Below are positions 1,870-36,292 of a stretch of 53,846 nt of DNA, one piece after another. Location: positions 1-53,846 of the forward strand of contig QPGO01000331.1 in the NCBI GenBank assembly GCA_008632985.1, read 5' to 3'. Source of the DNA: Psammoneis japonica (Eukaryota). Every line of letters begins with the position of its first letter. The first letter of the stretch is position 1. Under the pieces are notes generated by a model, which was not told the origin of the DNA, searched no databases, and worked only from the letters and a program-made list of their open reading frames with translations. The position numbers and the translations under genes are program-made.

Positions 1870-4800
1870 ATGAAAGGAGGGATGCGATGCACAATGGACA
1901 CTCAACACGACGTCGCGACGACCGAACACAGTAGACTAACTATTCTGGATTCTTCATGGGACAACGAAGGAAAACTGAACATGACTGGGTCGATAGACAT
2001 GGAAGGTGTCCCCACCAGTAGTGGCTCAATGAACGAGACGGCACCGAACTCGTCCGTGGTGGAAGAAGAAATAGCTGCGGAAGCTTCTCCCATCACGCCG
2101 CCACGAGACCGCACTTCTTCACAGGAATGTGTGTTGGAGGACGCATCTCCGCAGTCGCTTGAATTTGATGGCGGAGAAAAATCTCTTCCGGCATCTGGGT
2201 CTGCAACCCCAGTTCCTGAAGACGACGTTGAAGCAGAGACGGGGGACAGGGACGAAGACGAGCCTGAGACGTGTCCCAGATGGGCAACAGCGTTGCAGAG
2301 CCCGTCGGAAGGCGGACAGTTCTCACCATCGGTGGAATTGAAGAGCCCCGTAAGCCTGCACGGAACCGGTTTGCTACTGGCGGTAGACCGAGCGAAAAGA
2401 CTTTCTAAGTGTGGTCGTCGTTGCTCGACTCTGTTTTATGACGTTGCTGCTCTATATGATACCTTCGCTCAAGCCGTACTCAAGACGAGCCAAGCACTAC
2501 AATCTCCAATGGGAGGAACACCCGTGGCGGGTGTGTCAAATGCCTGTATCAATAGCTTGATGTCGTTTTCCAAACAAATACAAGGACTTGCAATATGCTT
2601 GCGTGGCAGCGTGGCCCGTCCTCTTCATGGCTCGATGACGTCGCTGGGAGACGCCGCACCCAACGTATACAATCGGTACACCTCAACTCGAGCCAAATGC
2701 TTTGATGCAAGGAAGGCGGCTCTTAATGTGCGCACAAAGTACGTCAAAGCTGTTCGTGACGCGGAAAGCGCGATCGAGGACTTCAAGCAAGCGAAGCAAA
2801 GTCAAGACCCAACCAGAACCGTAGAAAGGGTGCAGTCTTCAGACAGTGCTGACATGTCAGTTTCCTCGACGACGGCCGACGCTGCTTTAGAGGAAAGTGA
2901 ATCGAAGGGATGGGAAAAGTCAATCATGAAGTTGGGACAAAAACAAGGTGGTTTTGGTAACGTAACTGATGTCGTATCGCGTCTTCTGAACCAAGTGCAG
3001 ACACTCGAAGGTCAATACATGAACCTCGTGGACGAAGAAAACAAGGCTGTATCTCAAGCTCAGACGATGGAGGTGATGGCACTCGAATCTCTTCAAGAAT
3101 TGGAAGAGGTATGTCTTTCTAACTTCAACTCATGGTCGTGATTTATGATTTTGCTCAATTGGATCTGTCGTTGTCGTGCTACAAAAGGAACGGCTACAGT
3201 GCTTTGTAGAAACAATCAAGCGCACGCTCGAAGCAGAAATGGGTGCGCTGGAGAAAATGATGCTTTCTTCAGATCATAACCAAGAGGGTAATGTGGACGC
3301 CATATCTGTAGAAGAAAAGAAAGGCAACGTTTTTACTTCTTTTCTCAAGACCGCCTCCTCGCAATTCGACGAAGGTATTGGAATCATGGACTCTGAGACC
3401 ATGGGACTTCCCGAAGAGGCGGGTAAGTTGCGAGACGAAGTTAAGTCGCAACTGTCGCGCCACTCATCGAGATGTCAGTCGATCAAATCTCTCATTAGTT
3501 TCTTCGATGAGATAGCCACCGCGTGCGCCTCCCTTGCGGCAGGAATGACCTCGAGACTTGGACAGGAAGGGTATGGACCAAAAAAGTAAGTAAGCTCTAT
3601 ACATTGGATATACAGTTGAAAGACTATATCACTTATATTAAACACGTCAAACAGGAGGAGCAGTGCACCCAACGGACTTTTGTCCGTGGCTATGGCGAAG
3701 AACGAAGGCAACAGTGTTCTTCGTTTCTGGAATAGTTTGAACGACACAATTGTTGAAAGTATCGCTGCCGCCCGAACGCTCTCAGAAACCTTTAAAGCTG
3801 CTCGAATATCTGCGCTAGAGACTTTGACAGCCGCAGACCGTGAAATGAAAGCCGCTTCCGACGCGGACGAGCAAAGGTGGAAGTACCTGTGCGATGCTGC
3901 CCGGAATGAAACTAAAGCGCAGTCTCGGTATAAACAGACGTCGAGTCAATTTGAAAAGGCCAGAAGTCGAGTACGGTCTGTCGATGACGGCAAAGACATT
4001 GCCGAGTCAGCCTCTGCTCCACCCCGAAAGGATTCTGGAATGACACAAGGAATGACGAAGGCTCTTGGGAATGTCATTTCGATTCTTCCAAACGGAGGGG
4101 AGCACGCAATGAAGATGATGACACCAAATGCGAGACGTAAGCTCGCACAGAAAAGTCTCGAAGAAGCAAATGAGAAAGAGGCGAAACACAAGTATAATTT
4201 GGAATCGGCAACGGCAATTAGAATCCAGGCGTTAAAGTCATACACCGATTCAGCAGAAGCGATGATCGACAAATTCAAGGACAGCGACGAACGAGGGTGG
4301 TCTGCGATTCGTGCGTCTCTAGAGGTGTCGGTGTCGAAGTTTGAAGTTTTCGCCAAGAGCGCTACAAATGCCTTGAGGTGCCATCTCGGCTTGTCGGAGA
4401 GACTGCGAATACTGCAATAACAACAGATATGGTCACATGGACAGCTCGGGTACGAAAGCACGTTGCAAAGAAAGCGAAACAGCAAGGCGCGGATTTGAAA
4501 CACGGGTTTAAACTCATGATTCAACTTGAAACATCCCCTGATGTTTACAAATTGTTGGCTTTAGTTCATAGTAATGACGAAGAACTTGAGAAGAAACGCG
4601 TGTCGAACGAGATGGTGGATTCGAGTAGCGAAAAGCTGCCGAACGAATCTCGGAGTGAACCGTTGTCGCCAAGTACACGAGACTTGATGTCGCTGTCAGA
4701 AGCATTGAAGGACCGTGTTGGTGTGGACAAGAGCTGCCAGATTTCATTAAAGCCCCGATTTCTCGCTGGAGGCCCGACTCTCGCCTCTGAGACGAAGAAG

Positions 4801-6286: not shown

Positions 6287-7534
6287 TCAATCGATCTCAT
6301 CCATGATTCCTTCTTTGTTTGTTTCAGACTCATCGCCGTCAGGTAGCGATGCAGTGATGTGCAAAAACGTTGCCACGTTCTTGGACGCAAATTCACATAC
6401 TTCGCACCCATGCTGCACCGTTATAGTGCCACCGCGATCTTTAAGTCTGTATCGATTCATGTCAATTTCCTCGACGACGATTATCATCTTTCTATCGTTC
6501 CGAAGAAGAGTGATAAGTTCACGGAGCGCGCTTCTGTTGTACGGGCCAAAAATGTGAACACTTGATTTCTTGTCTTGGCGAAGCAGTTTCTTCATTGTCT
6601 GAGACAACGCCACTAGATCAGAAAACAAATAGGCACAGTCACTAGCAACGACGGTGTCATAACTGGCCTCATAGCTACCAACAACGGCCGTCCTCCTTCC
6701 CTTTTCGGCGAAATCGTGCCAATTCAGTTTCCTCACATGCAAACGAGGTCCTACTACCCTCCCGTACGATTGACGAACTCGACCAATATTGTCTCTGCAC
6801 TGATTAATGACTTCTGCCTTGTAGTCTGTCATTGTAAATGACTTCATTTCTGGTGGACGATGAATGTGACTCATGATCCCGCCAAATCCAACCCCGCTCC
6901 CTAGTTCGATTACGTCACCAAAGAGCAATTCTGGATGCATAGAGAAGAACATGGCCATAACAATAGAGCTTTCCCATGTTGTAGAACCTGTACCCGCACT
7001 CCCTAGAACACCGTGATCAATTTCTTTGAGTTCAAACGACAGCATGGGATCACCCAGTCGCGCGAGGTCTTCTTTTTCACACCGGGGATGAATTGGTGTT
7101 ACTGAAGGCACGTTTTTTCTCAAAACAAAGCGTTTTGAGGCTCGCTCCAGGTCGTAATGCTCCTCTACAGCGAAAGGATTCCTTATCGAGTGACGGATCG
7201 AAGAAGACACGTCGAGCTCATAGTATGTTCTCGTCACTCCGTCACGCGATATGCAAAACGTATCGCCTTCGAGAAGCAATGGTGGCGGGGACAAAAAAGA
7301 AACGGCAACATTTTGTTGCTCTACCAAGGGCGTTAGTATTTCGTTCGAGGTGCTTGGACGACATTGGAAAAAATCTTCGCTGTTTCTAACAGGACGGGAT
7401 TGCGGGTATCGCGTCGGTGCTGATGTCACGTGAGCATTGACTGCTTGCTGGCTAAACACCCCCGACAAGGTCTGAAGACTCCGAGATCTTGATGTAGACG
7501 ATGCCATTGCCGCTCTGAACTTTGGTGTGGGCAT
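6287..7534 (-). CDS. Class I SAM-dependent protein-lysine methyltransferase, METTL21/Methyltransf_16 family
   Basis: Motifs GTGSTTWESSIVMA, VIELGSGVGFGG, MTDY, KLNW, YDTVVASDCAY. Start uncertain; the ORF is open to 7690. Confidence 0.85.
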   Translation of the reverse strand: MPTPKFRAAMASSTSRSRSLQTLSGVFSQQAVNAHVTSAPTRYPQSRPVRNSEDFFQCRPSTSNEILTPLVEQQNVAVSFLSPPPLLLEGDTFCISRDGVTRTYYELDVSSSIRHSIRNPFAVEEHYDLERASKRFVLRKNVPSVTPIHPRCEKEDLARLGDPMLSFELKEIDHGVLGSAGTGSTTWESSIVMAMFFSMHPELLFGDVIELGSGVGFGGIMSHIHRPPEMKSFTMTDYKAEVINQCRDNIGRVRQSYGRVVGPRLHVRKLNWHDFAEKGRRTAVVGSYEASYDTVVASDCAYLFSDLVALSQTMKKLLRQDKKSSVHIFGPYNRSALRELITLLRNDRKMIIVVEEIDMNRYRLKDRGGTITVQHGCEVCEFASKNVATFLHITASLPDGDESETNKEGIMDEID

Positions 7535-7724
7535 CAGAACATGCTTTCGGACAGTAACACCTAACACCGAATGAATCCAGATTTGAAAACAAGACCAGCC
7601 CAGGAAGTGAGTCCGTAGGGCCCTACAGTAATCATCATCATCACAGAAGATCCGTGTCAACAACATTGACGTCATCACGAACTCGTGCATACTCTACAGT
7701 CTACAGTCTTCTCTCTAGAGACTA

Positions 7725-10700
7725 CCGCTGGCCTCAAACGTTCCCGGCGTCCGTGACTGAAATTTCACCACGATGAAGTACGTGAGTCGAGTGAGTCGAT
7801 TGGACTCAAACGTTCCCGATTTGGCATAAAAAACGGCATGTTGCACTTTGATGTGTCTCGACATGGCAAACTTCGTTGGGTCGACGTATCTTTCTTGGGG
7901 GATCTTTTTCTATTGTTGTTATAAAGAGGTTGATGCATTGGTTTGGTTTCCGGGGGGGCTTCCGTTGCAACACACGGTGTGAACAGTTGCGTGCCTCGAC
8001 TCGTGACTCGATTGCGTCGCGGTGCGGGCTACATCTGAATGGTCGACAACGTCACAGAGGTAAGTTCTTTCTTTGTTTTCTCATTTTACACCAATTGCAT
8101 GCTCACCAAAGATGTTGTTTGCGCTTTGTTAAAGCTTCGCAGGTGGATTGATCGTCTCGTGCCGTCGATTGTTGCATCTGTGATGTTGGCGTTTTTTTCG
8201 AGGCGTTTGCACCACCACAGCGCATCCGTTTGGGAGCCTTGTGCCTCGTCCCACTCTACATCCTTTGGTGCACCTGTCATGCACATCAACATGGATTTGT
8301 GATGCGCTTGACATCCTTCTTGGGGGCTTGGTCGGCGCACAATCATGGCATGTCGTTTTTCGGCCGTCACAATGTTTGGAAAGTGCATGCCGTGGGAACA
8401 AAATGACGCAATGGAGCCTGGAGGACATTTGTGACAGTGGCATTTGTCAGACAGTCTTGTCACAGTCCACAAAAGGTTCGGAGGCAAAGATCGCACTCTT
8501 CTTGGGAGACTTGCCGTTTGATGGCAGACATGGCGGATTCAAAATCAGGGCAACGCAGAGTTTTCTGGCCAATGACACCGGAGACCACGAATCCCTTCAG
8601 CATCTTCTTCCATTGCGATGACTGAGTCAGGATTGACAGAAGTTTGGTGAGCAAGTTGACGATTGCATCCTTGTCCTTTCCAAGCTGAAGGGGAGTCTTT
8701 TCCAGGGCTCTTGCAGCCTCCAACTTGTTTGCATGAGCATGGGCGTCTAACTCTGTGGTTGTGGCTTGTTTCTTCAGGACAGATTTCGCAGCACTGAAGA
8801 CATCAGCTTGATTGCAAGATGCTTCCGATCCGGTCCTTGCAGGGTTGGTCTTGCTGGAGGTCATCTTCTCTTCATCATCAATTTTTGTCGCTTCTGGGGA
8901 AACCGTGTTTGCATCAATTTGTCCACGGTCACCATCCATGACAAGAATGCTGCGCTCGTCTTCAGTGGGTGCTTGGTCCAAGGCACCCATGCAGCCTCGC
9001 AACTTGTGATGCTGTCTCTGCACACAAGGCAAATGGACAAACTTGCGATGCATCACTGTGTGCTTGAGCTCAGCTTTGTCAACGTCGTCCCTCATGAACA
9101 GGACAAAGCCGACACCAGCATCAACGTTCGCATCACCTCCTGGACACAGCCCGTGCACATCCACTGAATGTGCACCATCCTTGTTGCCATGCGCATCTTT
9201 CGTGTGTCCTTTTGGGAGCTGACGTTTCGTCATCTTCTTGAACGTCAACATGACTGGCACGGCTTCTCCAGAAGCAACCATTGTGACGGCAAGTTTTGCT
9301 CTGAGGCACTCAAATGATGGATCTTTGCCTTTCTCACACTTTGAGTGATTTCCTGCGTCTGCGTTGTCTTTGGCAGCAACAACGCGCCACTCTAAAGGGT
9401 CTCCAGGTTGGGGGCCTTTCATGACAGCAAGCCCAGTGTCGTCCATTCCCATGTTGAGGGATGTGCTCGTCGGATGTGCTTTGTTTCCACGACATGTTTC
9501 AACAAGGTCAAGAAAGGTTTTTGCACCTGCAGTCAGGTTGGAGACCACGTTTTCAAAGGCTTTGTCCTCCCCATCAACAAGCGTTGCATCGGCGCATGGA
9601 ATGACCAAGGTTGTGGTGGCTCGCAAGGAGCGTTCGGCCGTGATGCGATTGTCGGTCTTGCGCTGCATCGTCTTGGTCATTGACAATTCACTGTTCTTCC
9701 CCAGAGCCAACCCGCGATGCCTCTTGGCTTCTCTTGTGGACACAGCCGTGTTTTCCGCCATTGGAACGACACCGCGCTCTGTCATTTTGGTGCATTTGTG
9801 ATCTGCCAAAGCTGTCTTCATTTCATCAAGCCCGAATGACTCACCGTCGTTTTGAACTGACTTCTTGCCAATCACTTGAATCTCATTGTTTGAGGCAACT
9901 GGTGTGTTTCCCCTGGCATGCCACTCTGTGTGCATGGGGTTGCCACTCGAGCAACTTTGAATTGTTTTGTTGCCAGCTCGTTGCACAGTGAAGGGAACCA
10001 GCGAGTGTTCCATTGTGCAAAATCAATGGCTTTGGTGCGATCTTGTTTGGGAATCATCAAAGCCATGTCAGCAAATTCCATCTTGCTGTGCATTTGTGTT
10101 TCCTTGTTTGCAGGCACGCAGAAGTTTGCACGAAGATGATGCGGTGGCTCAAGCAGTTGCGGTCTCTTGTTCACAGCATGTGCCCCTGGTTTTGGTGGCT
10201 GGTTTTCTTTGTCGTTTGCACTTCGGCACACGTCCTCTGGCACGGCGAGGGAATTGGATGGACGTTTCGGACCGGCGGCTCTTGATTCTTGCAATCGGCC
10301 CATGCTCACATTCTCTTGCATTCACTTCTGGCGGGCTTTTTCACTGTTCAAACGATTGTGGACGCACTGAACATTGGGGAGTTGAGCGGCACGAGCTGCT
10401 GTCACGGTTGCTCCTTTTGTCATCGCTTGCGAAATGGAAAGGCTGTTTTCGACAACTTTGAGCTTGCTGACGACTTCTTTCAACTTCTGCTGTGATGCTT
10501 TCTTCCCACTGTTCAATGTGTTCTGGACCTCTTTCAACACATTTTGCTGGTGTTGCATGTCCGAAGCGACAGCAGAACTGTCAAGAAGACCGTCGAATGC
10601 ATTGTCCATTTGGGATTTTTGCATCAACGCAGCGGCATTTTCTTCTGCATCCTTGAGCAATGAAGCAGCAGACAAAGCACACAGATGACTCATGGTTTGT

Positions 10701-10873
10701 CACTGTTCTTTGTGGTGTTCATTGGAGCTGCGACTGCATTTGAAACAACAGCAGCACGGTCATTGCAGCGTTGGCGTTGACCCGTCGCGTCAGAGGGAAT
10801 TCAAATCTTGCGTGCATCATCCTTCGCGTGCGGCGGGAACGTTTGAGGCAACGGGGACGTTTGAGGCCACCGG
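7725..10873 (-). mobile_element. Tc1/mariner-pogo-like DNA transposon, TA-erased relic
   Basis: 22-bp TIRs: CCGCTGGCCTCAAACGTTCCCG (7725-7746) and CGGGGACGTTTGAGGCCACCGG (10852-10873). Subterminal copies at 7801-7818 and 10834-10850. Flanked by TA (7723-7724) and CA (10874-10875). Contains a DDE-like ORF. Confidence 0.85.
8086..10693 (-). pseudogene. Degenerate DDE_1/pogo-like transposase
   Basis: ORF 8460-10013 has LNMGMDDTGL (cf. NMDETG), SILVMDGDRGQ (cf. LLILDGHxSH) and NPARTGSEASCNQADVF (cf. PxxxTxxxQPxDxxxF). Broken into several frames; no Tyr in 517 aa. Confidence 0.7.
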
Positions 10874-11315
10874 CAGTCTTCGGGAATGTTAAAACAGAAA
10901 TGACCCTGACATGCCACTGTCAAAAAACTCTGTTCTGATGTTCCAAAGTGCCAGAAGTGCTTCCCAGCAGAAAAACCTGCCAGAGCTGCGTCCCTCCGGG
11001 TTGGCACTTCCAGAAAATTGGAACAGCCTGTTCCAACATTCCCGGAGTGCCTCATGATGCCATTTGTCTTTTCTGCACATGTTCTGCACAGAGTGCATGC
11101 CAGCGTTTTAAGATCCCATGCGCCACCACAAGACTCCTTCCCGGGACTCGTGAGATTTGTGTCATCAAAGTTTCTGCCGCTCGCACCATTCCTGTCACAA
11201 CAATCAACCCACAATCTGAGTCCGACAAACAGCAACAGTTCATTTCATCGCTGTCTCCTGACAATGTCAACAACACAACATGCCAGGGGGGTGAACTGGA
11301 AGGCACAGTGGATGC

Positions 11316-14180
11316 GTGCACCCCCATCAGCGTGAAACTGATGATGATGCGCCAATCCTTGGGGGCGACTTGTCAGCACCTGGCGACCTCGCCGAAAAGT
11401 GCAATGAAACTGCCCAGTTGGAAATGGGAGACAAATGCCGACAAACCCATTGTCAGAGACTTGCACGTTTGGCCAAGTTTTGGAAGGAGAATGACCCTGA
11501 ATGTCATTCTGTTGGCGTTGGAGAGGTTTCTGCTGAAGACCTTTGCGATCCAACTGAGCACTGCTTCAATCGGCACCGAGAAGACCTTGTGCATGCAGGC
11601 ATGAACGACCAGTTTGCATTGCATTTCTCAGCGTCAAACAAGAAGAAGGCCAGTGGAAAGCTCAAGTTGTGTGAAGACATCCAAAAACACAAAGACGCCA
11701 CAATGTGGGGTGCCAAGACGGCAGACGAGCGCTTGCCTGAGAGCTTCCGTGCAATGTTTGATGAGTTCCTCACCGGGTGCAAGAAGGAACATGCTCAAGC
11801 AAGAAAGAGAGGGAATGCAGATGAAAACTCTGCTGATCCTGTTCCCGTTTCCTTGCACAAGCTCATGCTGGAATGGAGCGTGGAAGCCAACAACGTGTTT
11901 GTGTGGTTCTGGACCATTGCCCAGTGGAATTTCATGGCCAGGTCAACATCCACAGATTCCTCACGGATGAAGAATTTCAAACTGAGCATGGACAGCTTGA
12001 CTGGAAAGCATGCAGAAGCAAAGGCCGACAAGTCTGGAGAGAGGCTTTCAGAGAAAAATGTGTGTGCCAACCCACTGGATTGGACGATGTGCTTTTGGAC
12101 GGGCGCGGGTGTTCATTGTGCTCTTTGTGGCGATGAGTTTGTTGGCAACGATGCTCTCTTTTTGGACAAAGGTGTGAAGGAAGGAATGTGCACCACCAAG
12201 CATTGTGAGCAGATTGCTGGAATTTTGCAGGCCCGCTTGGACAAAATCATGAATCACATGGATCCAAGTCGCGTGAATCCGTGTGGCACTCGAAAGGGCT
12301 CGGGGACCCATGCCTTGAATGGGACCACTTCACCCCCGTCAATTCCAGCTGTTGCACGTCGTGGAGAGTGGACTGTCGGGAGTGTCCTTGATTGCCATTG
12401 ACATTTTGGCAGCATTGGCGACCAACATCTTGGACGCATTCTTGCGGTTTGGATCCAAACGATGCATCATTTGACATGCTTCCACCTCATTGGAAGCTTG
12501 CAGATCCGACATCAAATGAAAAAGTGAAACTTGGCATGATGAAAACATTTGGTGAGAATGTGACAAATGAGCACAAGACTTTTGTTCCCACTCTGCTGCG
12601 GTGCTTTGCATGTGTGGTGCATCGTCCCGACTCGCTGATTGAAGTTGTGGTGAGCGTGCCGGGTCATGACTTTTCGAAGCTGTCAATCCTCCATGAAAGG
12701 AGATTTTTGGGGGAGCTGCAATCTCTTGTGACAACAGAGCCTGCAGAAGGGGCATTGACTGTCCCCACTGGGATGCCACCCCATGTCGGCATGGCAAGAC
12801 AACTGTGCGAGTTGACACGCAAAGCCGATTTGATGCTCGCGAATGTGGATTCGCAGACGGAGACGTTGGTGGCGGCAGTGTTGGATGCAACAGATCAAAA
12901 AGCATGGGATTCTGGACATGTGACAAGTGATCGTCTGAAAGGGATGTTCAAAAGTTTTCAGGAGGAGACAATGCAAATGATGCATTCTGAGTTGGATGGT
13001 TTCAAGACTGTTTTGTGGTCCTTCCCTGCGGGCGGCAGCAACATGTGCACAAACGGCCGCATTGGCGCGGCTTCTGATGATGGTCCAGTGGAAACCACCT
13101 TTTGCTGTGACAACAAAACACACATGGTTCCAAAGCAATTTCGTCTTCCATCGGGAACAACAATCAAGGAAGGCCTGAGATTTTGGCTTTCTGGCCAAAC
13201 CGCATCAGCTGATGGTGCAAAGGTTGGACCTTTTTGAGACCTTGTGCCTTCCTCTCTCCCACCAGAGGCAAGGAAGGTTTGTTCTGTTCAGTGGAGTCCT
13301 GTCTTTCGCTTTGTTGAGAATGCACTGTCAGAGCAAGATGAGTCGCTTGGCGCCGACTCGGATTTTGATGACTTGCACGAAAAGTGTGTCGCGTGCTTGA
13401 AGGAGCATGTGCTTGAAGGAGCATGCCTCGCATTGCTTTGCCAAAGGAGATCCCATGGGGTGGAGCCTTGGAACTTGGAGCAACAGGGTGAGTCATTCAA
13501 TGACACCAAAAAGTGGAGCCGAGTCGGACAAAGGATTTTTGAAAGCTGGTGCGAACCGAAACAAACCTCGGCACGCTGCAACTTGAAAGCATGGTCCTCA
13601 CAATGCGAAACATCCAGGTCGCCAATGCAGACGCCTTGAGAATGAAAGCGTGGCAGAATCAAGAGTGGGAGAAGAGGATGCCTTTGCCAAAGCTTTCAGT
13701 GGTGCAGAGGACAGAATGACAGATCCCATGCGTGAGCGAGACGAAGAAATCAGAGCTGAAGCAGAGCGGGAAATGGCGGCAGAACAAGCTCAGCAACAGA
13801 AAGAGCGTGCCCAAACTGGTGATGGAGTGGGCACTGATGGTGCTCTTCTTTGTGCCCATCAGACGAATGGCGTTGAACGGAATTGTGGCAACGACTCGTT
13901 TTCGGCACGAGTGTCGCATGGCAAAAAAGTTGGTCATGCGATTGACTCCGATTCTGCTGGTGCTGGTGTTGGCATGGGCAAGGCGGGGACCAAACCAACT
14001 CAACCTGGTGTGTGTCCAATTGTTGGATGTACTTGCTTTCGCACCGTTCCTGATCACAAGTGCAAAAACAAGAGCTGCAACAAGTGCGTCCACTGCTTGT
14101 GTGCGCAACGTTGCAGCTTGACGAGTGCAAGCAATGAACTGAGCGTGCATTGTTCAATTGCATGCAAAGGCAGTGATTGG
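11316..14180 (+). pseudogene. Crypton (stramenopile-type) tyrosine-recombinase transposon relic with C-terminal Cys-rich zinc-finger-like region
   Basis: Motifs QWNFMARS, KADKSGE...EKNVCANP, NPCGTRKGSGTHA (cf. HSxRKG), RRGEWTVGSVLDCH*HFGSIGDQHLGRIL, GLDP..ASFDMLPPHW and HMVPKQFRLP...WLSG...GPF, typical of oomycete/diatom Cryptons. Disrupted by TGA stops at 12399 and 13235, a frameshift near 12447 and a 16-bp tandem duplication at 13393-13424. Confidence 0.8.
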
Positions 14181-14464
14181 ACGTTTTGTCATCAGTCAGC
14201 ACAGTGTCATCATTGCATTTTACTTTTGCAAGAGCAACCGAAGAAGTGGTCCAAGAGGTGCAGCGAGCGGCCCACTCTTGCGCAGGTGGTGAAGCCAACG
14301 GTGATGGTGAGGGGAACGACAGTGAAATTGGACACGCCACTCCATCTTATGATCAGCGGCACTGGACAGTTTAGTTAAAAGTGTTCAGCATTGTCAAAAA
14401 TGCTTTGATCGTTCACTCTGTTGTCAATGCGCCTGCCCAACTTGTGCCAGTTCTGAGAGTGTTT

Positions 14465-15175
14465 TTTGGACAAAACAGAAATCCACAATTCTCAACAACA
14501 CACAACGAGACCAACCCAGCAGGATGCATTGTGCAATTGCTCCCAACATTGAAAAAGAAACAGAGAAATCGGTGCAAGCATCATTGAGACATCATGTCGT
14601 AAAGTGGGACACCGGCACGGCGGCACGCATCATTGTGCTGCTGCAGTTTCTTGCGTGTAACTTTGAAACACATGTTCAACGATGTGTGTCGGCAATGCCA
14701 GCAATGAACTTGTTCATTCTGTTGTTGTAATTTTTGGTTTAGACATCTTTAAAAAACATTTGACAATGACATCACAAAAGAATCACAGTCAACGGAAATT
14801 AACGCCAATCGCATCAGACGCTTGTTGCGCGATTTTGCGGCCCGCATGTGGGCCGCAAAAATCTCATCGCAAATTTTTGCGGCCCGCATGTGGGTCGCAA
14901 ATTCTTAAAATGACGCTTGTCTCGGAATGCGCACGCAAAACTTGCATCGCCGACATCCATCGTTGCACACGTGCATTTCTCAGTGGCACGCAACAAACTG
15001 CAGCAGCACAATGGTGCCCACCGCCGGTCTCCCACTTTACGGTGTGATGTCTCAATGATCCTCACACCGATTTCCCCGTTTCTTTCATCAATGTTGGGAG
15101 GGAATGCACAATGCATCTAAATGGGTTGGCCCCATCTTCTGTCATTGAGAATTGTGGATTTCTGTTTTGTTCGAA
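14465..15175. repeat. Long imperfect inverted repeat (arms ~14465-14700 and ~14945-15175)
   Basis: ACAAAACAGAAATCCACAATTCTCAA (~14470) is mirrored at ~15146-15171. TCATTGAGACATCA, GTAAAGTGGGA and CATTGTGCTGCTGCAGTTT are all mirrored in the right arm. Confidence 0.85.
14831..14903. repeat. Two tandem GC-rich palindromes TTTTGCGGCCC-GCATGT-GGGCCGCAAAA
   Basis: Copies at 14831-14863 and 14874-14903, between the arms of the long inverted repeat. A half-site occurs at 16083-16093. Confidence 0.9.
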
Positions 15176-16096
15176 ACCACACAGAATTTTCAAATTTGGA
15201 AAAGCACAAAATGACGGAATGAGCACCAATTTACAAACACTGCACAAACAGTTGTTCTTTTGTGACATGCCAAAACAGACAAAACATGGTTGTGCGGAAT
15301 GTGGTTTCCAATGGCAGTTGCTTGGCTGCTGATCTAGTCTAGTTCCTCAACCGTGATGACAGATTGCCGCGCCAGCTTTTTTGTGGAGTCAACAGAGCGG
15401 CTGTTGCTGACACGCATTCAGCAACAATGAGCTGCGGATCTCGTGCCTCAACTGTGATGCAATGAATTGCAGACATGCCAGCTTTGAAAGGAGCAAACAC
15501 TTTCTTTCAATCTCTGCCAATGCCAACTTGTGTCCTCCTGCAACAGTTCCGTCGCCGCGGCGCCTGACCTCTCCTTTGTCTGCGCCCATCATGTTTTCTT
15601 GATGCTTTCCCAAATTGATCACATGGGCATGGGCAATGACCTTGAATCGTGCTCGAGCTCTCTTGGCCATTGGCAACTCCACAGGAAGACTTGGAGGGGG
15701 GGCATGCACGGGTGCAGATGGTGCTTCGGCAGTGGACTGCGACACCGGATTTCGCGGCATGTCTTGAACAGGCGAAAAAGGCATGTCCGTTCCCGCTGCA
15801 AGCAATGCTGACACATCTGGCACTTCTCTGACGATGTTGTCAGGCGTCCGAGATTGCTGGAGTGAACATCCTTCACTGGTGTGGCCCGCCGCAGGGTCCG
15901 CCATGGTGGAGGGAGAAATCGGCGAAAAAGTGCGCGAAAATGCGCGCACATTTTAGAGGCTACGACAACAACCACTGGGACTTTTTTGACAGATGAAGTG
16001 TCGATTCCTGTGTTTTCGGGCATGGAGAATTCGACTGTGGGGTCAATTCATCGATTGTCTGTGTCATTGAAGATTTGAAAAAATTTGCGGCCCATG

Positions 16097-16414
16097 CTGC
16101 AAATTGCAAAACAATTGCGCGATGCACGTGCCCGAAGGTCGAATGTCGTTGCCCGAAGCAACATTCCTCCTTCGCGCAGATGTCCATTCTACATGGTGTG
16201 TGGTGTTGAAAATCTCGCTGTAGTCGCATGAGTCGTTGAAGTAATTTCATCAATGACCTCTGTTTTGCTGTGCTGCGTGATCTACACAAATCGGACATTC
16301 TCGAATGCTGGTATATTTTCTACGGTCTCTACGTGCGCGAAGCTCGAATTTCGTGCCCGAAGCAACAATCACCCTTCGGGCACGTGTGTCGCGCAATTGT
16401 TCAGCAATTCGCAG
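16097..16414. repeat. ~42-bp inverted repeat, possibly the subterminal structure of an unclassified element
   Basis: 16111-16138 ACAATTGCGCGATGCACGTGCCCGAAGG versus 16373-16400 CCTTCGGGCACGTGTGTCGCGCAATTGT. The direct repeat GCCCGAAGCAACA also occurs at ~16151 and ~16355. Confidence 0.8.
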
Positions 16415-17056
16415 TACGTACATGCCACTTCGTGTTGCTGTAGTCACGTGAGAGGCTTTATATTTTATATCCATTAACGAGTGAATCAATCCCGCAAATA
16501 CAGCTATTTAGGTACGGTAGGCAGACATAGAGAGTAGGAACTACCAGCGCAGCTCGGAGGCTGAGGAGGTTCCTACTAACTGTATGAATACAGTGTGGTA
16601 CCGCACGTCGAGCGCGCTACCGGTATGTAGGCCCTAGGCCCTAATCAAGTTTCGTTTTGTTTAGCTCTCTCTACTCTATGCGCTAGAGCTAGAGTAGAGA
16701 GTAGACTAGCTACTAGCAGTGCCTAGAGTTAGCTACCTGGTACGGTAAGTACGGCAGCGCTGTAGTTTAGTTCCTTACTTGAGCGAGAAAGATAAATAAG
16801 AAGATTTAGGTAAGGTAGTTAGTCGCACTGGCTTTTGGCTCGGCACCAGGTGCTGCTTGCAGCAATGATGCCATTGCGCAATGGTGGCAAACATTTTAGA
16901 CTGGTTCACTCCGGAGATGGCGTCCGGAGTGGAAACGGAGAGTGGAAGTTTCAGAGCCGGCACCAGGATTTTGTGCTTAGTCCAAGGCCTCCCTGAAAAA
17001 CATAAACTAGATTGCTGGCGTCACTGGTTTCATTCATTTACAGCAAAAACGACATA

Positions 17057-20000
17057 TTAATGCGGAATCCCGCCAGGCGGCGGCCACTCCCACACACTCT
17101 TATTCGTTTTAGTGTCAAAGAAATACCAACGTTTCTGACTCTTTGACCACACACAAATCCAGCCCTGAGGCAAGTCCACTTGGGGCTTTTTCTCTTGCAT
17201 CTGCATGTCCGGAAGTGAAGTGAGGGATTCGGTTTTCTTGGGCTTCGGAGGAGGCGGAGGAAAGCTGGGCTTCTGACGCTTGGCTGCGGATTGCTCTAGC
17301 AAAGGCGGTGCTTGTTTCGCTGTCGGGGGTGGCGGCGGTGGCGGTGGTCTTCCTGAAGGAGGAGGTGGCTTTCGATGCTGAGGAGGTGGCGGTGGAACCG
17401 GCCGCGCCGTCACCTTCTTATCGCATGGTCCAGATTGCCTCCTCTGCACTGCACCTTCGTGAGTCTCGGTAGCTGCCCTTTGCCGTTTCGATGCAGGATT
17501 GCGCTCGGGTGTGGACTCCCTCTCGCGTTTCCTTGATGAGCCCTCATCGGAGTGTACATGCGAGCTACGCTTTCTGGCCGGCGGCAGTGCGTCCGCAAAG
17601 ATAGCTTCCCCTTCCCCCTCCGCCGACGAGAACGTGTCATGAGGAGGCGAACCGGGTGATCTACGAGGATCTGCCTCCTCTTTCTCATGCTGTAGTGGTG
17701 GCCTTTGATTTGAGAAGATATCGGGAACAAGTGAATCGCCCCTCTTATCTTTGTAGGGATTACCAAAATTGACCATTAGCCGTGATCGTACTCTAGTTTG
17801 TACTGAATCCGAGAATTCTCCAGTCTTCAAATCGAAAAATGAGAGAGGCATAGCATCATCATCAACAGACCAAATCGGGGAGCCATCCGGCGCCGTCGTC
17901 GCCGCTGAGCCAGATGAATCGTTAGAGCCGTAGCCCACCACCGGAGCCCTGGACCAAAGCAGTCGCTCTCTAAAGTCGCCCATGCGCGTGGTTCTTGTCT
18001 GGTTCAGAGTTGACACACCCACCCCAGCGACAGAAAGCAGAGATTCATCCTTTGCACAGTGATTCGCCTTACAATAATGCGCGTTGCTCCCATCGTTGTT
18101 GACGCCCTCCACATGAAGGCCTCTAGTCGCCAACCCCGATCCCCCGAATATCCATCGCCTTCTAGACTCGTAGTAAGGTATAAGACAAGAGGCTGGAAGG
18201 GCGCCGAGTCTGTAAAACCCATGAAGATGTAGTGAGCAATACATGAAAATATTGCCATTATCTGCAACAGTGAAGAATTCGACTTACACATCGACCGTCG
18301 TGTTCATTTCCCTGCCTTCCACAACACAGGTCGTTGAAGCTACATTGCTCGTAGCATCGCGCGCAGAGCTTTCATTCTTCGGCCTGTTCTTTCCAACCCG
18401 TTGCCGCCCAGCATGCCAGGGTGCAGGCATGTTTCGAATAGCAGCAAGAAAACTACTGGTCGAAGCCCTGGGATCATACCGACCGTAGCCGATCACCACA
18501 TTTGCGGTGCTCTTGAGTTGGCCTCCTCCTACTAGGCGCAACTCTGCCTCCTGTCTTTCGAGCCTCTCGTTCATTTCCTTCGCTGCTTGTTCTCCTCCCC
18601 GAATTTTCTGCAAACATACCTTGGAGAAGCACTGCGACGCAAGAGCTTCAATTCCGTCGGTACTCAACAACGAATGTACACTTGTTGGTAGGATGGAGCG
18701 GAGACAACGCCTCAGTGAGATCTGGTAGTAAGGCGGAACCCGAAAAAGGTAAGCTCTAAACTCAGACCTCCAATGTTCGTCAAGCTGTACAAGTCTCGGG
18801 CCCGTGTTGGTCCCGGTTTGCTTGTGAATAAGCCCGGCGGTCGCCCCACTCCTGTTTGCTGAAGCACTTGAACTCTCTTTCTCACCTGACTTCTTGATGG
18901 CGCGATGTTCTGCTTCCGCGGCTTTCACCAACAGAGGAAGCAAAATATGAGGTTCCGGAGGGAGCAACGTAAGAGTTGATAATCGTGTCGAACCCTGCTT
19001 TGAGGATTCAACATTTTGGAGCGTCGCTGAGTTACGCGGGATGTGCAGGATGCCAATTCCAAGGAAGCTTTCTTCACCTTCTGACAGAGACGACCTACCG
19101 GCTCCTCGAACACAGACTGGAAGATACTCTCGCTGAGCTTTGATTGGCACTCCTCCTTTTCCATCTTGAGCAAGCCACTCACAAATATACGTGTCGCGCA
19201 GGAGTGCCGTTGCTTGGTTTAGATGGCCCGAAGCGATTGGAGAAGGCGATGCATGCCGGTTGGAAACAAGAAGCTGATCTAGTCGATTTATCGCCTTTAT
19301 TACAAGCAAAGGGTCGAACATGCTTGACCCTACCACTTGATAGTGATGTGTATACGCAAGAGACGGCTGCGCCAGACGTGGTGGCAAAGTGTCGAGTTTC
19401 TTGCTCGGGAAAAAAGATTCGGGAATGCAGAAGATTGGTGGGTGGAACGTCTTAGGTTGCGGTCCCAAGGTCGTCTGTACTTGGTTATACGGTACATAAA
19501 GAAGCATTGCTCGGGTGAACTGACGCATGTTCCGCCGAATCAATCGACCGGAAGCAACAGATTGGACCTCCATTAACGAATGAGGCACACATACCCGGCG
19601 CCTGCCTCAAGGGGGCGGTAGTTTGAGACTGTGTCACAGGACGTGGGTCCAGTGGGTCCAGTATCGGGAGAACCGAAGGACGCGGAGGAGCCATAAGCTT
19701 GATCAAGAGCTTCGTCGTTTGAGAAAGCGACGTGGCGGATTTGAGGAGAGTGTGGCACCCCCCTGTGACCTCGCACAGCGCTTTCAGTGATGAATGCAGA
19801 TACTGAGTCGACGATACACCTTCTTTTGCACCAACGCATAAACAGAATATTCTTGGTCCCATCGAAATGGCTCTTTGTAAAACTCTCGAAGATGCGAAGT
19901 CCCAACCTGTAATTGAAGAGAGCCTCCTCCATCAGAGGGTGGCAGTCGCAGACACTCCCCGTCAGTGACCAAGACAAGGCATGCCGGCTGGAGAGCATGA

Positions 20001-20662: not shown

Positions 20663-20999
20663 TTTGATGGCACAACTGCTGGCAAAACGATGAAGTCCAA
20701 ATCCGGTGGGTTTCAGGTTTTAACAGTGACCCCAGCTATTGTAGTCAGGTTTGAACCCTGTCGATCATATCGTCAATTTTCTGCGAACGGTGGTGCCCCG
20801 GGGCGGCCAGTTCATTGCATCAAGCTAGAGAAGTAACAAAGTGCTCAGTCAGTTATGATGTCGAATGTCGCCCATGGCGTGCCGCACTGTACTGCCGGCG
20901 CGGCGCAATCTTGAAGAGTCTGTCCTCGAGAGCTACCGGGCACCGTACCGGCAGCAGCGAGGAGGAGTGTCGTTGAAGGCATTTCAAAGACTCATTACC

Positions 21000-22701
21000 C
21001 TTTCGAAGACGCGGCGGCGGGTGCCACCGGTGTTGTTGAAACACAGGCTGCTTGAGCCTGTGGTTGAAAGGGCTGACCTTCGCTGCGGAAAAATGTTGGC
21101 TCTGCTTTTGGTCATTCTTGTGAAGAGCCAAGAGAAGCCCAGCGCCAATGTGTTTCTTCATTCTGCAGCAGCAGGAGGCAAGCAGCACAGAGAGGGACAA
21201 ACGAGAGTGACAGCTGTGCCAAAGCGTGCAAGTGGTTCGAAACAAGAAGAAAGCCTCACCTCGGGGAGCCCCCCACCAGTTTTCCTGATGCCCTGCCAGC
21301 CAGCCAGCCAGCCAAGGGCAGCCAGGACAAAGAGCACCTCTCTCACACATGAGCGCTGCTGCTGGTGGGCCGACCTCAAGCGGGAGACGTGTGGCGCTGC
21401 CACTGCACGACCACCCCCTCTGTGCTGCCACAGCGGCTGGCACAGTGCGCTGCCTGCCCTTCTGCCACCTGCCGCTGGTCAAAACATGCAGCAATTTTTC
21501 AAGGCCAAAGCCAAGGATCTGCGTTGGAGAACATGAGACAAGGTCACAATGTGGGATTTTGCTGGCCTGCCCAAGTTTCAAGTTCAAGGTCAGTTTGGGC
21601 ACAGAGCTCACAAGGAGAGCTGGTGCTGGCACCAAGCATGCAGCGCACCTGCCACATGGGAGCGCGGCACTCCACCAGCAGCTCTTGACTTTCCCTGCGC
21701 AGCCCTTGTGCAAACACGCGCCACCCAAAGAGCAAGACTGCATTGCCGAGCAAAAGATCACTCCGCCAGGCTCCACAGGTGCCTCCCCACTTCTCAAAAC
21801 TGTCAGAAGCTTTCCAACACATGCTGCGCCAGATTCCCAAACACAGCCAGGCAGTGGTCAAAACATGCGCTCCAGCATGCCGGACAATCTCAAAACATGC
21901 ATGAAGCCCAGGGCACACATTCTTTCTGCGTGCAAGAGCTTTCCCCAGTGTGAACAGTTGCTGTGATGCTGCTGGTCATGGAACAGGGCAGAGTTGCTGC
22001 GCACACTGCTGCCCACCTCCAGCGCAGTGGGCGCCCCAAGTTTTCATCATCTGACTGCCCCAGCGAACCCAACAAGGCCCCAGTCCTGTGACGTGCTGGC
22101 TCCAGCTTCCAAAAGATGCTGCCGCAGATGTGGTGCTTGCCGCTTTCAGAAATCTGCAAGGAATGCCAAGGCCCAAGACTTTCAACCAACCTTGAGATGG
22201 CTGGCAGCAGCAGCACATGTGTGCACACTCTGCTGCAGACAATTTTGACGTGCAGGAAAACCAAACTCATTTTGACTGTGTTCACAGTTTGGGGACAATG
22301 TGCTGGCAACCAAAAGCTTGCCAGCGAGGTGACACCTCTTGCACACAAAACTCACTCAATGCTGCCTTTTTTGTCTTGCTTGGGCAACTTTCATGTGGAG
22401 GCCACCAAGCTTTGGCACTTGCAGGGCCCTGCCACCTGGGCTGTCCTCTTGCACAGCCAAATTGCTGCGCACTGCGCACCATCATCTGACGTGGCATGGC
22501 TGGCTGCCCTTGGTGACAAGCCTTCGCTGCTCGCACCCAGGAAAACGGTGCGGCCATCTGCAGCGAGGTCAACAGCTCAGAAGGCTTGTCAGCCACACGC
22601 CCTTGGACCCATGCCACCCTGTGCGAAAGAGCCACTGGCTGCCATGCGTTGCGCCTTTTGCAATGGCATGGTGTCCTCTGTGACGCAGCAATGATGGGGA
22701 G

Positions 22702-22757
<56 letters not shown>

Positions 22758-23340
22758 NNNNNNNNNNNNNNNNNNNNNNNNNNNNNNNNNNNNNNNNNNN
22801 NNNNNNNNNNNNNNNNNNNNNNNNNNNNNNNNNNNNNNNNNNNNNNNNNNNNNNNNNNNNNNNNNNNNNNNNNNNNNNNNNNNNNNNNNNNNNNNNNNNN
22901 NNNNNNNNNNNNNNNNNNNNNNNNNNNNNNNNNNNNNNNNNNNNNNNNNNNNNNNNNNNNNNNNNNNNNNNNNNNNNNNNNNNGTGTGTGTGTTCTTGCC
23001 CTCTCTGGAGCAGAAAATGGAGCACCCCCTTTCAAGAAGAGACCCACATCAAGTTTTGCTTGGTGGTCTTGGGCACAAACTTTGCATGGTTGGAGTTCCC
23101 ATCAAAGGTCCTGTGAGCATCATTTTTTTGTGAGAGGGCAAGGGCCTTTTTTTGTTGGGAACACTTCAAGGGGACCAAACAAATGGAGCTTTGTAAAACA
23201 ACCTGCACTCTTGCATTCGCCGTGGTTGTTCTCTCAGTGCAAAAAGGAGTCTCAGAGGGGCTGCACCTGGCCTCTGAGGGAGCTGATGAGGGGCTCGCAT
23301 TTTGAGCTTGTTGCCTCACTCACTTGTTGGTTGCACTGCA
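21000..23340. other. TpA-free island with no recognisable coding relic
   Basis: No TA seen in 21000-22757 and one in 22984-23340 (manual scan). Rich in TG/CA; contains a (CCAG)n tract at ~21296-21313. Confidence 0.85.
22708..22992. repeat. (TG)n microsatellite spanning an assembly gap (N 22758-22983)
   Basis: GT repeats on both sides of the N run. Confidence 0.95.
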
Positions 23341-24091
23341 GCATGCCTTAGAGTGTGCCGTTGTGATTGTAAAAGCAGTGCTAGGTTGTGAGCAGCTGAG
23401 CTGCTTCCACATAAACAGAGGCAACACATTTTGTACGACGGAGCACGCAGCATGTGCGCGCGAAGATGGCGGCTTACTCTGCACTTTCTACTCTAGAGCG
23501 GCTAGAGTTGTTGACTTCAATGACAGCTACAGTTGTGCGTCACTCTGCTTTTGAAAGGCATACTGTAAGTCAAGAGATTCCAGCTTCAGCCAAGCATTTC
23601 AAATGGCCCGCTTCGACTACCTTTGCTTCTCGTTAGTAAAAGTTCGAATCAAAACCTTCATCATCATGCATTTGGCTAGAAACTATCGCTAGATACTTGA
23701 GCTGTTGCACAAATGAGTGCCAGTGTGCTTAGCTCCCCATCTTCTGAAACCAAAAGTCATGACAAATCCAACTCGTTGTTTTGATCCTCGTCAATCGCCA
23801 CCTTTTTCCACAGCGGTTCATTCCGTCCATGTAGTCCTCGCTTCATCCATTGAATGCTGAACAATTTGAGAAAATTGCCATCAATCTCAAAGTAATATCA
23901 TCGTCCAATAGACCACACGCGCCACCAATTCCGCTTCTTTCTGCGCGCTTGCTCAGTTGGTAGGTCTACCATGAGATGGATCCTGAATGACCCAAAAAAT
24001 CTTTGAAGAATAATTGTCTTGCTTCGGCTTCAGAAGACCGGCACTCGCATCGACGCTTTTCCGTATCCAAGACATATGTTTCTCTTCTATC

Positions 24092-35882: not shown

Positions 35883-36106
35883 CTCATCGTCCTGCTGTGC
35901 TTTTTTTGTTTTCCGTTTGTTGTTCCGTCGGCGCGGTCGCGTCGCTCTCGCTCGGCGGTGTAGGGCCTACTGTACGGTATGTGTTCTGTGGTTAGACTCT
36001 AGTGTGACGTGTGACGGTGGAGCATATTACTTTTATACGGATTTAAAGATCGAAATATTTTAACGGTGCGAACTCTATCGTTTCAAAAAATGCTGTTTAC
36101 AGCGCA

Positions 36107-36292
36107 GTGCCAGCACATGATGCAACATCATGCCTTCAGCAACGCTGTCATTTTTCGCCCATTGTGGTGCCATGCGATGGTCTGATTGGCAAGGAGGCTC
36201 AAGCCGCCCTACGTCAGCTAGCGGGAAAGATTTCTAACAAGTGGCAGAAAAGCCCTGTTTGGAAGTGTGTGGCTTCTTGTCAACGCAAGTGA
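36107..36292 (+). mobile_element. 3' fragment of a CRE-like non-LTR retrotransposon (C-terminal restriction-like endonuclease region)
   Basis: CLQQRCHFSPIVVPCDGLIGKEAQAALRQLAGKISNKWQK resembles the CxxxxxHFTPFVxSxDGLLGxEAxxxLxxLAxxLxxKW tail of such elements. Confidence 0.6.

Follow-up and report, generated by a model that had tools for sequence, protein, structure and literature searches.

Hypermutation of foreign DNA specifically at TpA was first reported in 2026, and we know of nothing on how it is aimed. In fungi, repeat-induced point mutation (RIP) degrades repeats through transition hypermutation of a germline or clonal kind; it is guided by homology between duplicates and proceeds by C>T changes, mostly at CpA, which create TpA. 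Methylated transposons, for their part, lose CpG through deamination of 5mC. Fungal RIP leaks into neighbouring single-copy DNA (PMC3105345). The closest described system is found in Bigelowiella natans, whose integrated viral DNA is hypermutated at TpA (Mettrop et al., 2026, bioRxiv 10.64898/2026.01.13.699255). That preprint reports de novo A>G/T>C mutation at TpA only in integrated viral regions, 124 clusters of TpA-poor 1-kb windows, an enrichment of DDE-superfamily endonuclease domains among TpA-poor coding sequences and a hypermutated viral region that is single-copy (10.64898/2026.01.13.699255). The published mutation-accumulation data comprise 231 TpA mutations in two regions. The preprint's resolution is that of 1-kb windows, and its main text contains none of the terms 'CpG', 'boundar' and 'edge', and so leaves aside fine-scale edges, how these relate to the ends of elements, and the joint decay of CpG (10.64898/2026.01.13.699255). 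Our literature search found no paper on cytosine methylation in Bigelowiella, and no report of TpA A-to-G genome defence beyond 10.64898/2026.01.13.699255.

We analysed a stretch of 53,846 nucleotides from Psammoneis japonica (contig QPGO01000331.1; hereafter the window), which contains three islands in which TpA, and partly CpG, has been turned into TG/CA. In most of 8.5-14, 21-23 and 36.5-47.5 kb, the TA o/e ratio is 0.00-0.10 and (TG+CA)/2 o/e is 1.5-2.1; in 14-15.5 kb, TA o/e is 0.14-0.20. Outside the islands the two ratios are approximately 0.3-1.4 (mostly 0.4-0.8) and 0.9-1.4 (mostly 1.0-1.3), respectively. YR steps occur at 205-280 per kb in and out of the islands, with TA and CG down and TG/CA up; because this total density is constant, the changes within the islands are transitions. 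In the core of island 1 (8261-16190), TpA is almost erased and CpG stands at approximately 55-75% of background. Island 2 (21001-23344) has sharp edges on both sides and an N gap at 22758-22983, and island 3 (36238-47510) has nearly lost both TpA (31/2516) and CpG (60/2545). Pfam matches were found for 0/23 and 0/116 of the island ORFs, Rfam and tRNA scans of the window returned no match, and terminal repeats were not found for islands 2 and 3. The three blocks are best explained as degenerate mobile or foreign DNA struck by TpA-to-TpG/CpA transition hypermutation, which is accompanied by a slower decay of CpG to TpG/CpA.

This signature, TpA lost and TpG/CpA gained in blocks of foreign or mobile DNA, is identical to that of B. 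natans. Both the o/e values and the A>G/T>C changes seen against relatives are those of TpA-to-TpG/CpA hypermutation. The window resembles RIP in that the limits of mutation need not match repeat ends. It differs from RIP in that A>G changes destroy TpA, whereas the C>T changes of RIP create it, and in that RIP overruns the repeat, whereas the mutated zone in the window falls short of the element end; homology guidance also sets RIP apart from the single-copy hypermutated viral region of the B. natans preprint. As in methylated transposons, TpG/CpA replaces CpG inside the blocks of the window, here judged from sequence alone.

The left end of island 1 lies in a TIR-bounded DNA transposon of 3,161 bp (7719-10879) with its transposase gene on the minus strand. 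The element is delimited by 28-nt inverted arms (7719-7746 and 10852-10879; 89% complementary, 25/28 positions matching) and by a 17-mer terminal motif at 7730 and 7802 on the plus strand and at 10834 and 10852 on the minus strand (four matches against 0.07 expected). The TA at 7723 in the left TIR is intact, and the matching place in the right TIR is TG. A further TA, at 7716-7717, is separated from the left arm by one base; beyond the right arm the sequence is TCG and belongs to mutated DNA. The core of the transposase is a 520-amino-acid ORF (8463-10022, minus strand) with 129 relatives (best E = 5.8e-32), and a family profile built without this ORF matches it at E = 2.3e-93. A probable N-terminal part lies in a different frame (10325-10699, minus strand; family profile positions 7-101, E = 8.6e-5). 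The ORF contains no tyrosine (0/520 amino acids, against 2.7% across the family): at the two columns where Tyr is best conserved (23/25 and 20/27) the window's transposase has His, and at a third (12/27 Tyr) it has Cys. The gene is mutated and presumably dead. A word-indexed protein search gave no match for the 520-amino-acid ORF, and a protein atlas gave no usable match.

The predicted structure of the transposase (pLDDT 80.6, pTM 0.73) indicates that its catalytic domain has a Mos1/SETMAR-type fold, RNase-H-like DDE/D. All 7 of the 7 Foldseek matches at E <= 0.001 were Mos1. VIA-align placed 3f2k_A (Z 12.5, rmsd 3.1, 191 aligned), 4mdb (Z 12.3) and 5cr4_A (Z 10.9) highest, and retroviral integrases reached a Z of at most 9.1, below SETMAR, Mos1 and Sleeping Beauty (12.5-10.9); identity to the solved chains is 8-11%. 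In an alignment of 28 sequences, the candidate acidic triad consists of D194 and D363, which are invariant, and D404, which is present in at least 90%. The element had been called pogo-like in the preliminary description, a label that stands at the level of the Tc1/mariner fold only: a Pfam pogo domain was not found, and the element's ORFs had no Pfam match to DDE_1 (PF03184) or to a CENP-B/Tc5-type HTH at E <= 1. With Tc1/mariner elements (Mos1, SETMAR/Metnase, Sleeping Beauty) it has in common the catalytic-domain fold and short TIRs with paired subterminal motifs. Unlike these named members, its transposase is without a Pfam match, as are all 12 of the 12 top relatives scanned (E <= 0.01), and a TA target duplication is not evident at the 3,161-bp element. 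Self-comparison of the window found no second copy (five unrelated pairs), and 120 metagenome-contig loci carrying the 17-base terminal motif proved to be chance matches, the best similarity to the element being 31 bases.

The mutated zone does not begin at the end of this transposon. The preliminary description had counted 11 TA sites in 7725-8280 and 2 in the following 2.6 kb, and a recount gave exactly these numbers (7779, 7827, 7887, 7911, 7920, 7922, 8030, 8061, 8087, 8130 and 8257; in 8281-10880, 8748 and 9393). Expressed as TA/(TA+TG+CA), the outermost 7719-7925 is at the background level (7/34 = 0.21; background 55/262 = 0.21), and the ratio is 0.08 (5/63) in 7926-8260 and 0.004 (2/525) in 8261-10879. 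The left terminal stretch (7719-8260) is non-coding and has been spared both TpA and CpG decay (TA 12/97, CG 41/126, against backgrounds of 0.21 and 0.30). Comparison of its TA count with that of the remaining element (12/97 against 2/525; Fisher P = 8e-9) rules out that the 11 terminal TAs arose by chance. The sparing has no coding explanation either: the transposase family profile has no match in 7718-8460, and the frames there look non-protein. A 150-amino-acid frame spanning the switch (8086-8538) gave no match in the word-indexed protein search. Nor is a younger element nested at the left end, as the 17-mer search found no further terminal motif at the TA switch or near 8260-8500. The best free single step in TA falls at 8130|8140 (2-lnL support 8087-8278), with alternative estimates of 8082 (logistic midpoint) and 8257|8259 (two-step boundary). 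Together with a CG step at 8251 and the comparison of copies, this defines a zone at 8130-8300 where both decays begin, 410-580 bp within the element and not at the TIR at 7719.

A gradual fade of the mutation zone, which the preliminary description had proposed for this edge and four others, is weakly supported. At the left edge, adding an intermediate zone brought no improvement (dlnL 2.32, bootstrap P = 0.58), and a logistic fit favoured w = 80 bp, with w = 1 bp merely 0.38 lnL worse; simulations of a true step showed as little step preference in 6.5% of 200 runs. Both edges of island 1 exceed a step in breadth, though only mildly (P about 0.065 each). For the return of TA at 16190-16500 this mild breadth stood (P = 0.065), the change itself being a step at approximately 16187-16283, and for 36100-36240 the TA count (3/32) is borderline (Fisher P = 0.06), with the edge at 36235-36238. 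The two other supposed gradients dissolved on inspection: in 20850-21000, TA stays at background density (5/25) until it drops sharply at 20996|21022, and in 23340-23640 it is at background (15/65) once past a sharp step at 23344|23349. The sharpest edge of all is the right edge of island 3 (47509|47514), which had not been listed. With 4 of the 6 edges sharp to the limit of site density, a taper of a few hundred bp near genes is not supported as a rule, and edge breadth shows no link to the kind of gene end, promoter or 3' end, on that side of the island. The edges are narrow: those of island 1 span a few hundred bp at the most, and the others are too sharp to resolve.

The right edge of island 1 also falls inside a repeat. 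This is a MITE-like repeat of 318 bp (16097-16414) with 50-nt inverted arms that are 84% complementary, and the TA step within it lies at 16278|16283 (support 16177-16312). Sites 16145, 16195 and 16200 are TG in the window and TA in other copies of the repeat. The window keeps a TA at 16190, between mutated sites, and the distal part of the repeat retains its TAs; the repeat is mutated in its island-side part only. The proposal that the mutation domain does not match element boundaries thus holds where ends are visible, with the switch inside the transposon at the left and inside the 318-bp repeat at the right; since element ends are not definable for islands 2 and 3, it rests on two edges of one island. 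The other copies are contigs from three runs of one sample in one study; stretches without contig cover in X2 and X3 are uninformative, and copy differences were read among 40 of 1,239 difference rows. Within those 40 rows, 7 have TA in the other copies and TG or CA in the window, and the differences fixed against all other copies comprise 7 of TA type and 20 of CG type. Contigs of other copies cross the left switch (records 2, 9 and 10 cover 8131-8477); the window has CG at 8248, where the others have CA, and TG at 8303 and 8404, where the others have CG.

These comparisons bear on whether the pattern was inherited, the element having been mutated, and its boundary fixed, at an earlier locus before an active transposase brought it here in trans, with its proximity to a gene accidental. 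The paired 17-mers at both ends and the 25 of 28 matching TIR positions make mobilization in trans conceivable, and the ratio of 7 TA-type to 20 CG-type fixed differences among the 40 of 1,239 rows hints that many TA losses are common to the copies. However, the DNA past the right TIR is equally TA-free for another 5 kb, which means that the mutated zone runs unbroken through the right end of the element, and the losses in the right-edge repeat are locus-specific. We regard inheritance of the pattern as improbable.

A stronger competitor, although in our judgement still rather unlikely, is a mosaic of ages, in which the body was mutated first and gene conversion or gap repair from one of the younger copies then replaced the left 540 bp, which has been exposed to decay for a shorter time. 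Related contigs reach a summed depth, which is not a copy number, of approximately 2,700-2,900 in 7768-8501, against 55 in the unique flanks and 200-500 in the rest (approximately 50x the unique flanks, against 4-9x in the rest of the island), making renewal from younger copies possible. Internal-deletion forms among the contigs (joints 8269>10132 and 8476>10194) are what gap repair of cut-and-paste elements would give, and the left stretch is without CpG and TpA decay alike, as youth predicts. Furthermore, an interior part of island 1 around a foldback repeat (14001-15400; arms 14464-14675 and 14969-15176) has intermediate TA (17/313, against 6/1274; P = 2e-8) at 1.2-2 kb from either edge. 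This heterogeneity at 14.0-15.4 kb shows that differently decayed pieces can adjoin; element- or age-specific differences exist, and a pure domain model is incomplete. On the other side, the contig-rich zone continues to approximately 8500 and TA ends at 8257; the switch thus does not coincide with a repeat junction, nor does it have a terminal-repeat motif near it. The right edge would demand a second independent event, and mutated and kept TAs are interleaved there in one small repeat.

Decay of CpG changes at nearly the same places as that of TpA. CG switches at 8251, 21033, 23430, 36233 and 47571 pair with TA switches at 8130|8140, 21010, 23345, 36238 and 47511, and the gap between the two is at most 85 bp at 4 of the 6 edges and about 120 bp at the left edge of island 1. 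Loss of CpG is graded between islands, and is slower than, and not proportional to, loss of TpA. This joint but unequal decay suggests that 5mC marks the same DNA. The matching switches would fit a methylated or silenced regional domain, and would equally fit pieces of different age.

The end of the transposase frame at 8463 raises the question of whether RNA, or transcription, of the transposase unit guides the mutator, which would then stop close to the 3' end of that unit. The family profile has no match in 7718-8460, and the switch, 200-330 bp on from the frame's end, may be the end of a 3' UTR; RNA guidance is also raised as a possibility in the Discussion of the B. natans preprint (10.64898/2026.01.13.699255). 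Against this, 180 bp upstream of the transposase gene and the right TIR are also mutated, and the right-edge switch falls within a small non-coding repeat. Guidance by a transcript seems to us very doubtful.

The alternative that we favour, as quite possible though short of probable, is a regional process in which the mutator acts within a silenced domain that ends at the upstream region of the neighbouring gene and not at the transposon end. That gene (6287-7690, minus strand) had been described as a methyltransferase; it encodes a member of the Methyltransf_16 protein-lysine methyltransferase family (PF10294, E = 1.2e-14, 54.9 bits, cutoff 21), not a DNA methyltransferase. The first ATG of the ORF lies 29 bp from the element end, so the protected upstream zone (approximately 350-570 bp) is made up of transposon DNA. 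The true start of this gene may be a later ATG, near 7540 or 7510. The untouched distance from predicted first ATG to island is 440-570 bp for the gene starting at 7690, 334-360 bp for that at 20662 and approximately 353 bp for that at 35882 (n = 3).

On the regional reading, a silenced domain, probably 5mC-marked heterochromatin, would start from the body of the foreign DNA, and the mutator, perhaps an adenine deaminase as proposed in the preprint, which names an ADAT2-type candidate (10.64898/2026.01.13.699255), would work within it. The domain would stop on meeting the upstream region of the neighbouring gene, sparing the terminal 350-570 bp or so of the transposon. Protection could come from active promoter chromatin, or alternatively from selection against lineages in which the mutator entered the promoter. 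The sequence itself shows the transitions, where the switches lie, that two of them fall inside repeats, and that CpG switches within 85 bp of TA at 4 of the 6 edges. The enzyme, the part played by the promoter and a domain made of chromatin or 5mC are our inferences, and we consider the chromatin-domain reading plausible but unproven. More generally, and more tentatively, the TpA mutator may be recruited by epigenetic state and not by sequence identity or element ends. TpA loss and CpG decay would then share one silencing domain with narrow, promoter-set edges (tens to a few hundred bp), and a transposon could escape in the part that forms, or falls within, the upstream region of a gene.

The window alone provides two informative edges and is a lead, not a result. 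Targeting can be tested at the edges at approximately 8130-8300, 16145-16283, 20996-21022, 23344-23349, 36235-36238 and 47509-47514, and the joint CpG decay seen here is absent from the main text of the preprint (10.64898/2026.01.13.699255). If the mutated zone follows a chromatin domain, targeting would be epigenetic and resemble heterochromatin spreading, in contrast to RIP, which is guided by homology. If this is true, the targeting rule of a recently discovered eukaryotic DNA-editing defence would be readable from sequence alone.

The window is gene-dense eukaryotic DNA, with long open reading frames carrying GRAM/VASt, Methyltransf_16, WW, FemAB-like, Ric8 and RPC82 domains, and TpA is nearly absent from three islands within it: island 1 at ~8.3-16.2 kb (8261-16190), island 2 at ~21.0-23.3 kb (21001-23344) and island 3 at ~36.2-47.5 kb (36238-47510). 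The observed/expected ratio of TA was 0.00-0.10 in most 500-bp windows of the islands and mostly 0.4-0.8 elsewhere, with values of 0.14-0.20 in 14-15.5 kb, and TpG+CpA rose to 1.5-2.1 in the islands. CpG was also depleted, unevenly: CG/(CG+TG+CA), which is 0.27-0.30 outside the islands, fell to 0.17-0.19 in the greater part of island 1, to 0.13 in island 2 and to 0.024 in island 3. Because the four pyrimidine-purine steps together number 205-280 per kb throughout, inside and outside the islands, TA and CG must have been turned into TG/CA by transitions. Across the three islands, CpG decay goes along with TpA loss but not in proportion. In island 3 ~92% of the CpG is gone, yet TA (31/2516) is slightly above that of the island 1 core, where TA is 4/1140 and CpG loss is only ~40%.

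DNA free of TA cannot hold TAA or TAG, so all three islands contain long open frames in several frames on both strands (39 of at least 100 aa in 7719-16200). Apart from a transposase, none of these frames found support, and gene callers would therefore over-predict here. Island 2 contains a 226-base N gap adjoining a (GT)25 run (22708-22983), so the sequence does not give its true length. Island 3 is flanked by a pair of paralogous minus-strand genes (33272-35316 and 48187-50195; 63% nucleotide identity over ~2 kb), both unmutated.

The left end of island 1 lies in a 3,161-bp transposon (7719-10879) bounded by 28-nt inverted repeats (7719-7746 and 10852-10879) that are complementary at 25 of 28 positions. 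A 17-base motif occurs twice at each end (four matches in the window, where chance predicts 0.07). Its 520-aa transposase frame (8463-10022, minus strand) has 129 relatives in a representative library, the best at E = 5.8e-32 and 28% identity, and is matched at E = 2.3e-93 by a family profile built from 27 relatives with the window's own sequence excluded. The same profile detected an N-terminal piece at 10325-10699 (minus strand; E = 8.6e-5) and nothing in 7718-8460, so the left 740 bp are non-coding for transposase. In the family alignment every sequence has D194 and D363, and nearly every one has D404, 41 residues after D363; the catalytic domain carries an insertion of ~100 residues. The predicted structure (pLDDT 80.6, pTM 0.73) gave seven Foldseek matches at E ≤ 0.001, all to Mos1. 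Against catalytic domains it scored Z = 12.5 for SETMAR, 12.3 for Mos1 and 10.9 for Sleeping Beauty (rmsd 3.1-6.4 over 191-208 residues), and at most 9.1 for retroviral integrases. The preliminary description had called the element pogo-like; this holds at the superfamily level, through the Mos1/SETMAR/Sleeping Beauty fold, and no further, as Pfam models matched neither the frame nor any of its 12 top relatives. The family comprises at least 129 cluster representatives and lacks a Pfam model of its own.

The transposase gene appears, from its sequence, to be dead. Its 520-aa frame encodes no tyrosine, a residue that makes up 2.7% of the family's sequences: histidine stands at the two columns where tyrosine is most conserved (Tyr in 23/25 and 20/27 relatives) and cysteine at a third (12/27), the products expected of TAY>CAY/TGY.

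The left end of this transposon was spared. The TA counts given in the preliminary description are exact, with 11 in 7725-8280 and 2 in the following 2.6 kb. As a fraction of TA+TG+CA sites, TA is at the background level (55/262) in 7719-7925 (7/34), and is 5/63 in 7926-8260 and 2/525 in 8261-10879; retention in the spared stretch differs from that in the remainder at P = 8e-9. CpG is likewise kept (41/126 versus 121/644 in the remainder), and a TA retained in the left inverted repeat corresponds to TG in the right one. The mutated zone thus ends inside the transposon, as a significant matter of counts.

We then asked whether the edges are steps or slopes. At the focal edge a free single change-point fell at 8130|8140 (support 8087-8278), and an added intermediate zone fitted no better (ΔlnL 2.32, bootstrap P = 0.58). 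The other steps lay at 16278|16283 (island 1 right; support 16177-16312), 20996|21022 and 23344|23349 (island 2), and 36235|36238 (support 36076-36270) and 47509|47514 (island 3). Logistic fits preferred a finite width at the focal edge alone (w = 80 bp, equivalent to ~350 bp between 10% and 90%, better than a step by 0.38 lnL) and w = 1 bp at the remaining five. Because a freely placed midpoint favours steps, we calibrated edge width by simulation. The observed pooled lnL(w=1) − lnL(w=80) was 8.88; simulated differences averaged 15.7 for a true w of 1 (reaching 8.88 in 97% of runs), 8.1 for 40 and 4.3 for 80 (reaching it in 13%). The shortfall traced to both island 1 edges, at each of which a true step gave an equally low step preference in 6.5% of 200 simulations; islands 2 and 3 each had step-like edges on both sides. 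A gradual fade of TA, as originally proposed, is only weakly supported: there is mild broadening in the focal stretch and at 16190-16500, the case of 36100-36240 is borderline (3/32, P = 0.06), and the supposed returns at 20850-21000 and 23340-23640 are plain background TA density beside a sharp step. Edge breadth was unrelated to which end of the neighbouring gene, promoter or 3', borders the island. Intergenic tracts beside the islands (16441-16820, 47700-47860 and 35960-36076) are TA-rich, in CTAG/TAGAG-like words (TA at 49 of 77 TA+TG+CA sites in 16441-16820), which sharpens edge contrast and produces spurious two-step signals there.

CpG decay switched at 8251, 21033, 23430, 36233 and 47571, at four of the six edges no more than 85 bp away from where TpA switches; the sixth is ill-defined. 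At the focal edge the CpG switch and the best TA step are ~120 bp apart, and the two-step TA boundary is at 8257|8259. This match rules out chance or single-site selection as the cause. It is expected from one silencing domain and equally from pieces of different age; that the pattern was inherited from an earlier locus seems improbable.

Other copies were examined by aligning contigs from three sequencing runs of one sample (X1, X2 and X3) to 6300-17300 at ≥80% likeness. In X1, summed contig depth, which by the aligner's own caution is not copy number and which we read only as many related contigs at both edge zones, was 55 in unique flanks, ~2,700-2,900 in 7768-8501, 200-500 over most of island 1, 700-1,150 in 14.4-15.8 kb and ~3,400-3,600 in 15842-16575. 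Joints at 8269>10132 and 8476>10194 link the transposon's left part straight to its right part, in internally deleted, presumably non-autonomous relatives. Long single-copy contigs of X1 and X2 end at 7598-7607, ~110 bp short of the terminal repeat, perhaps at a variant or a short repeat. Joints at 8052>8134 and 8052>8141, skipping 81 or 88 bases, occurred in X2 and were absent from X1. They overlie a plus-strand GTAAGT...CAG stretch (8060-8142) and could conceivably reflect splicing of a transcript from the left end of the repeat; the run type of X2 is a guess, and no run is recorded as RNA. Transcript-guided targeting of the mutation ranks last among the explanations considered and is doubtful.

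X1 copies differed from the window at 983 transition places versus 218 transversions. Among the 40 listed of 1,239 difference rows, 20 are CG in other copies and TG/CA in the window, 7 are TA in other copies and TG/CA in the window, 3 are CG and 1 is TA in the window only, and 9 are of neither type. These listed rows include 8248 (CG in the window, CA in most other copies) and 8303 and 8404 (TG in the window, CG in other copies). Since contigs of other copies span 8131-8477, the left switch lies inside homologous repeat DNA and not at a junction. At the right edge of island 1, a partly mutated zone lies inside one small repeat, a 318-bp MITE-like element (16097-16414) with 50-nt arms: listed rows at 16145, 16195 and 16200 are TG in the window and TA in other copies, and the window retains TA at 16190 and from 16221 on.

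Our best single reading, held tentatively and from sequence, is that a regional domain, and not the transposon's own sequence, may set the mutated zone. The left switch carries neither a junction nor a terminal motif, mutated and kept sites interleave at the right edge of island 1, and the mutated zone runs unbroken over the right inverted repeat into 5 kb more of TA-free DNA. Wherever a gene start faces an island, as at three edges, the first ATG is preceded by 334-570 bp of unmutated sequence; at the focal edge this buffer is transposon DNA. Against a pure domain, TA is intermediate in the interior of island 1 around a foldback repeat (14.0-15.4 kb; 17/313 versus 6/1274, P = 2e-8), and within the transposon related contigs are most numerous at the spared left end. 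The latter makes renewal of the left end by conversion or gap repair a rival of some weight, which we rank as less likely than the regional domain and ahead of an inherited pattern.

The phenomenon itself has been published. For Bigelowiella natans, a preprint from 2026 (10.64898/2026.01.13.699255) describes TpA loss with TpG+CpA gain, the signature carried by all three islands here. According to that preprint, two regions of integrated viral DNA acquire de novo A>G/T>C changes exclusively at TpA, with a rate of ~6e-7 per site and generation; TpA-poor 1-kb windows form 124 clusters, and an ADAT2-like deaminase is put forward as a candidate for the enzyme. 'CpG', 'boundar' and 'edge' do not occur in its main text, supplements aside. 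The fine-scale edges, their position relative to transposon ends and the joint decay of CpG in the window go beyond that main text.
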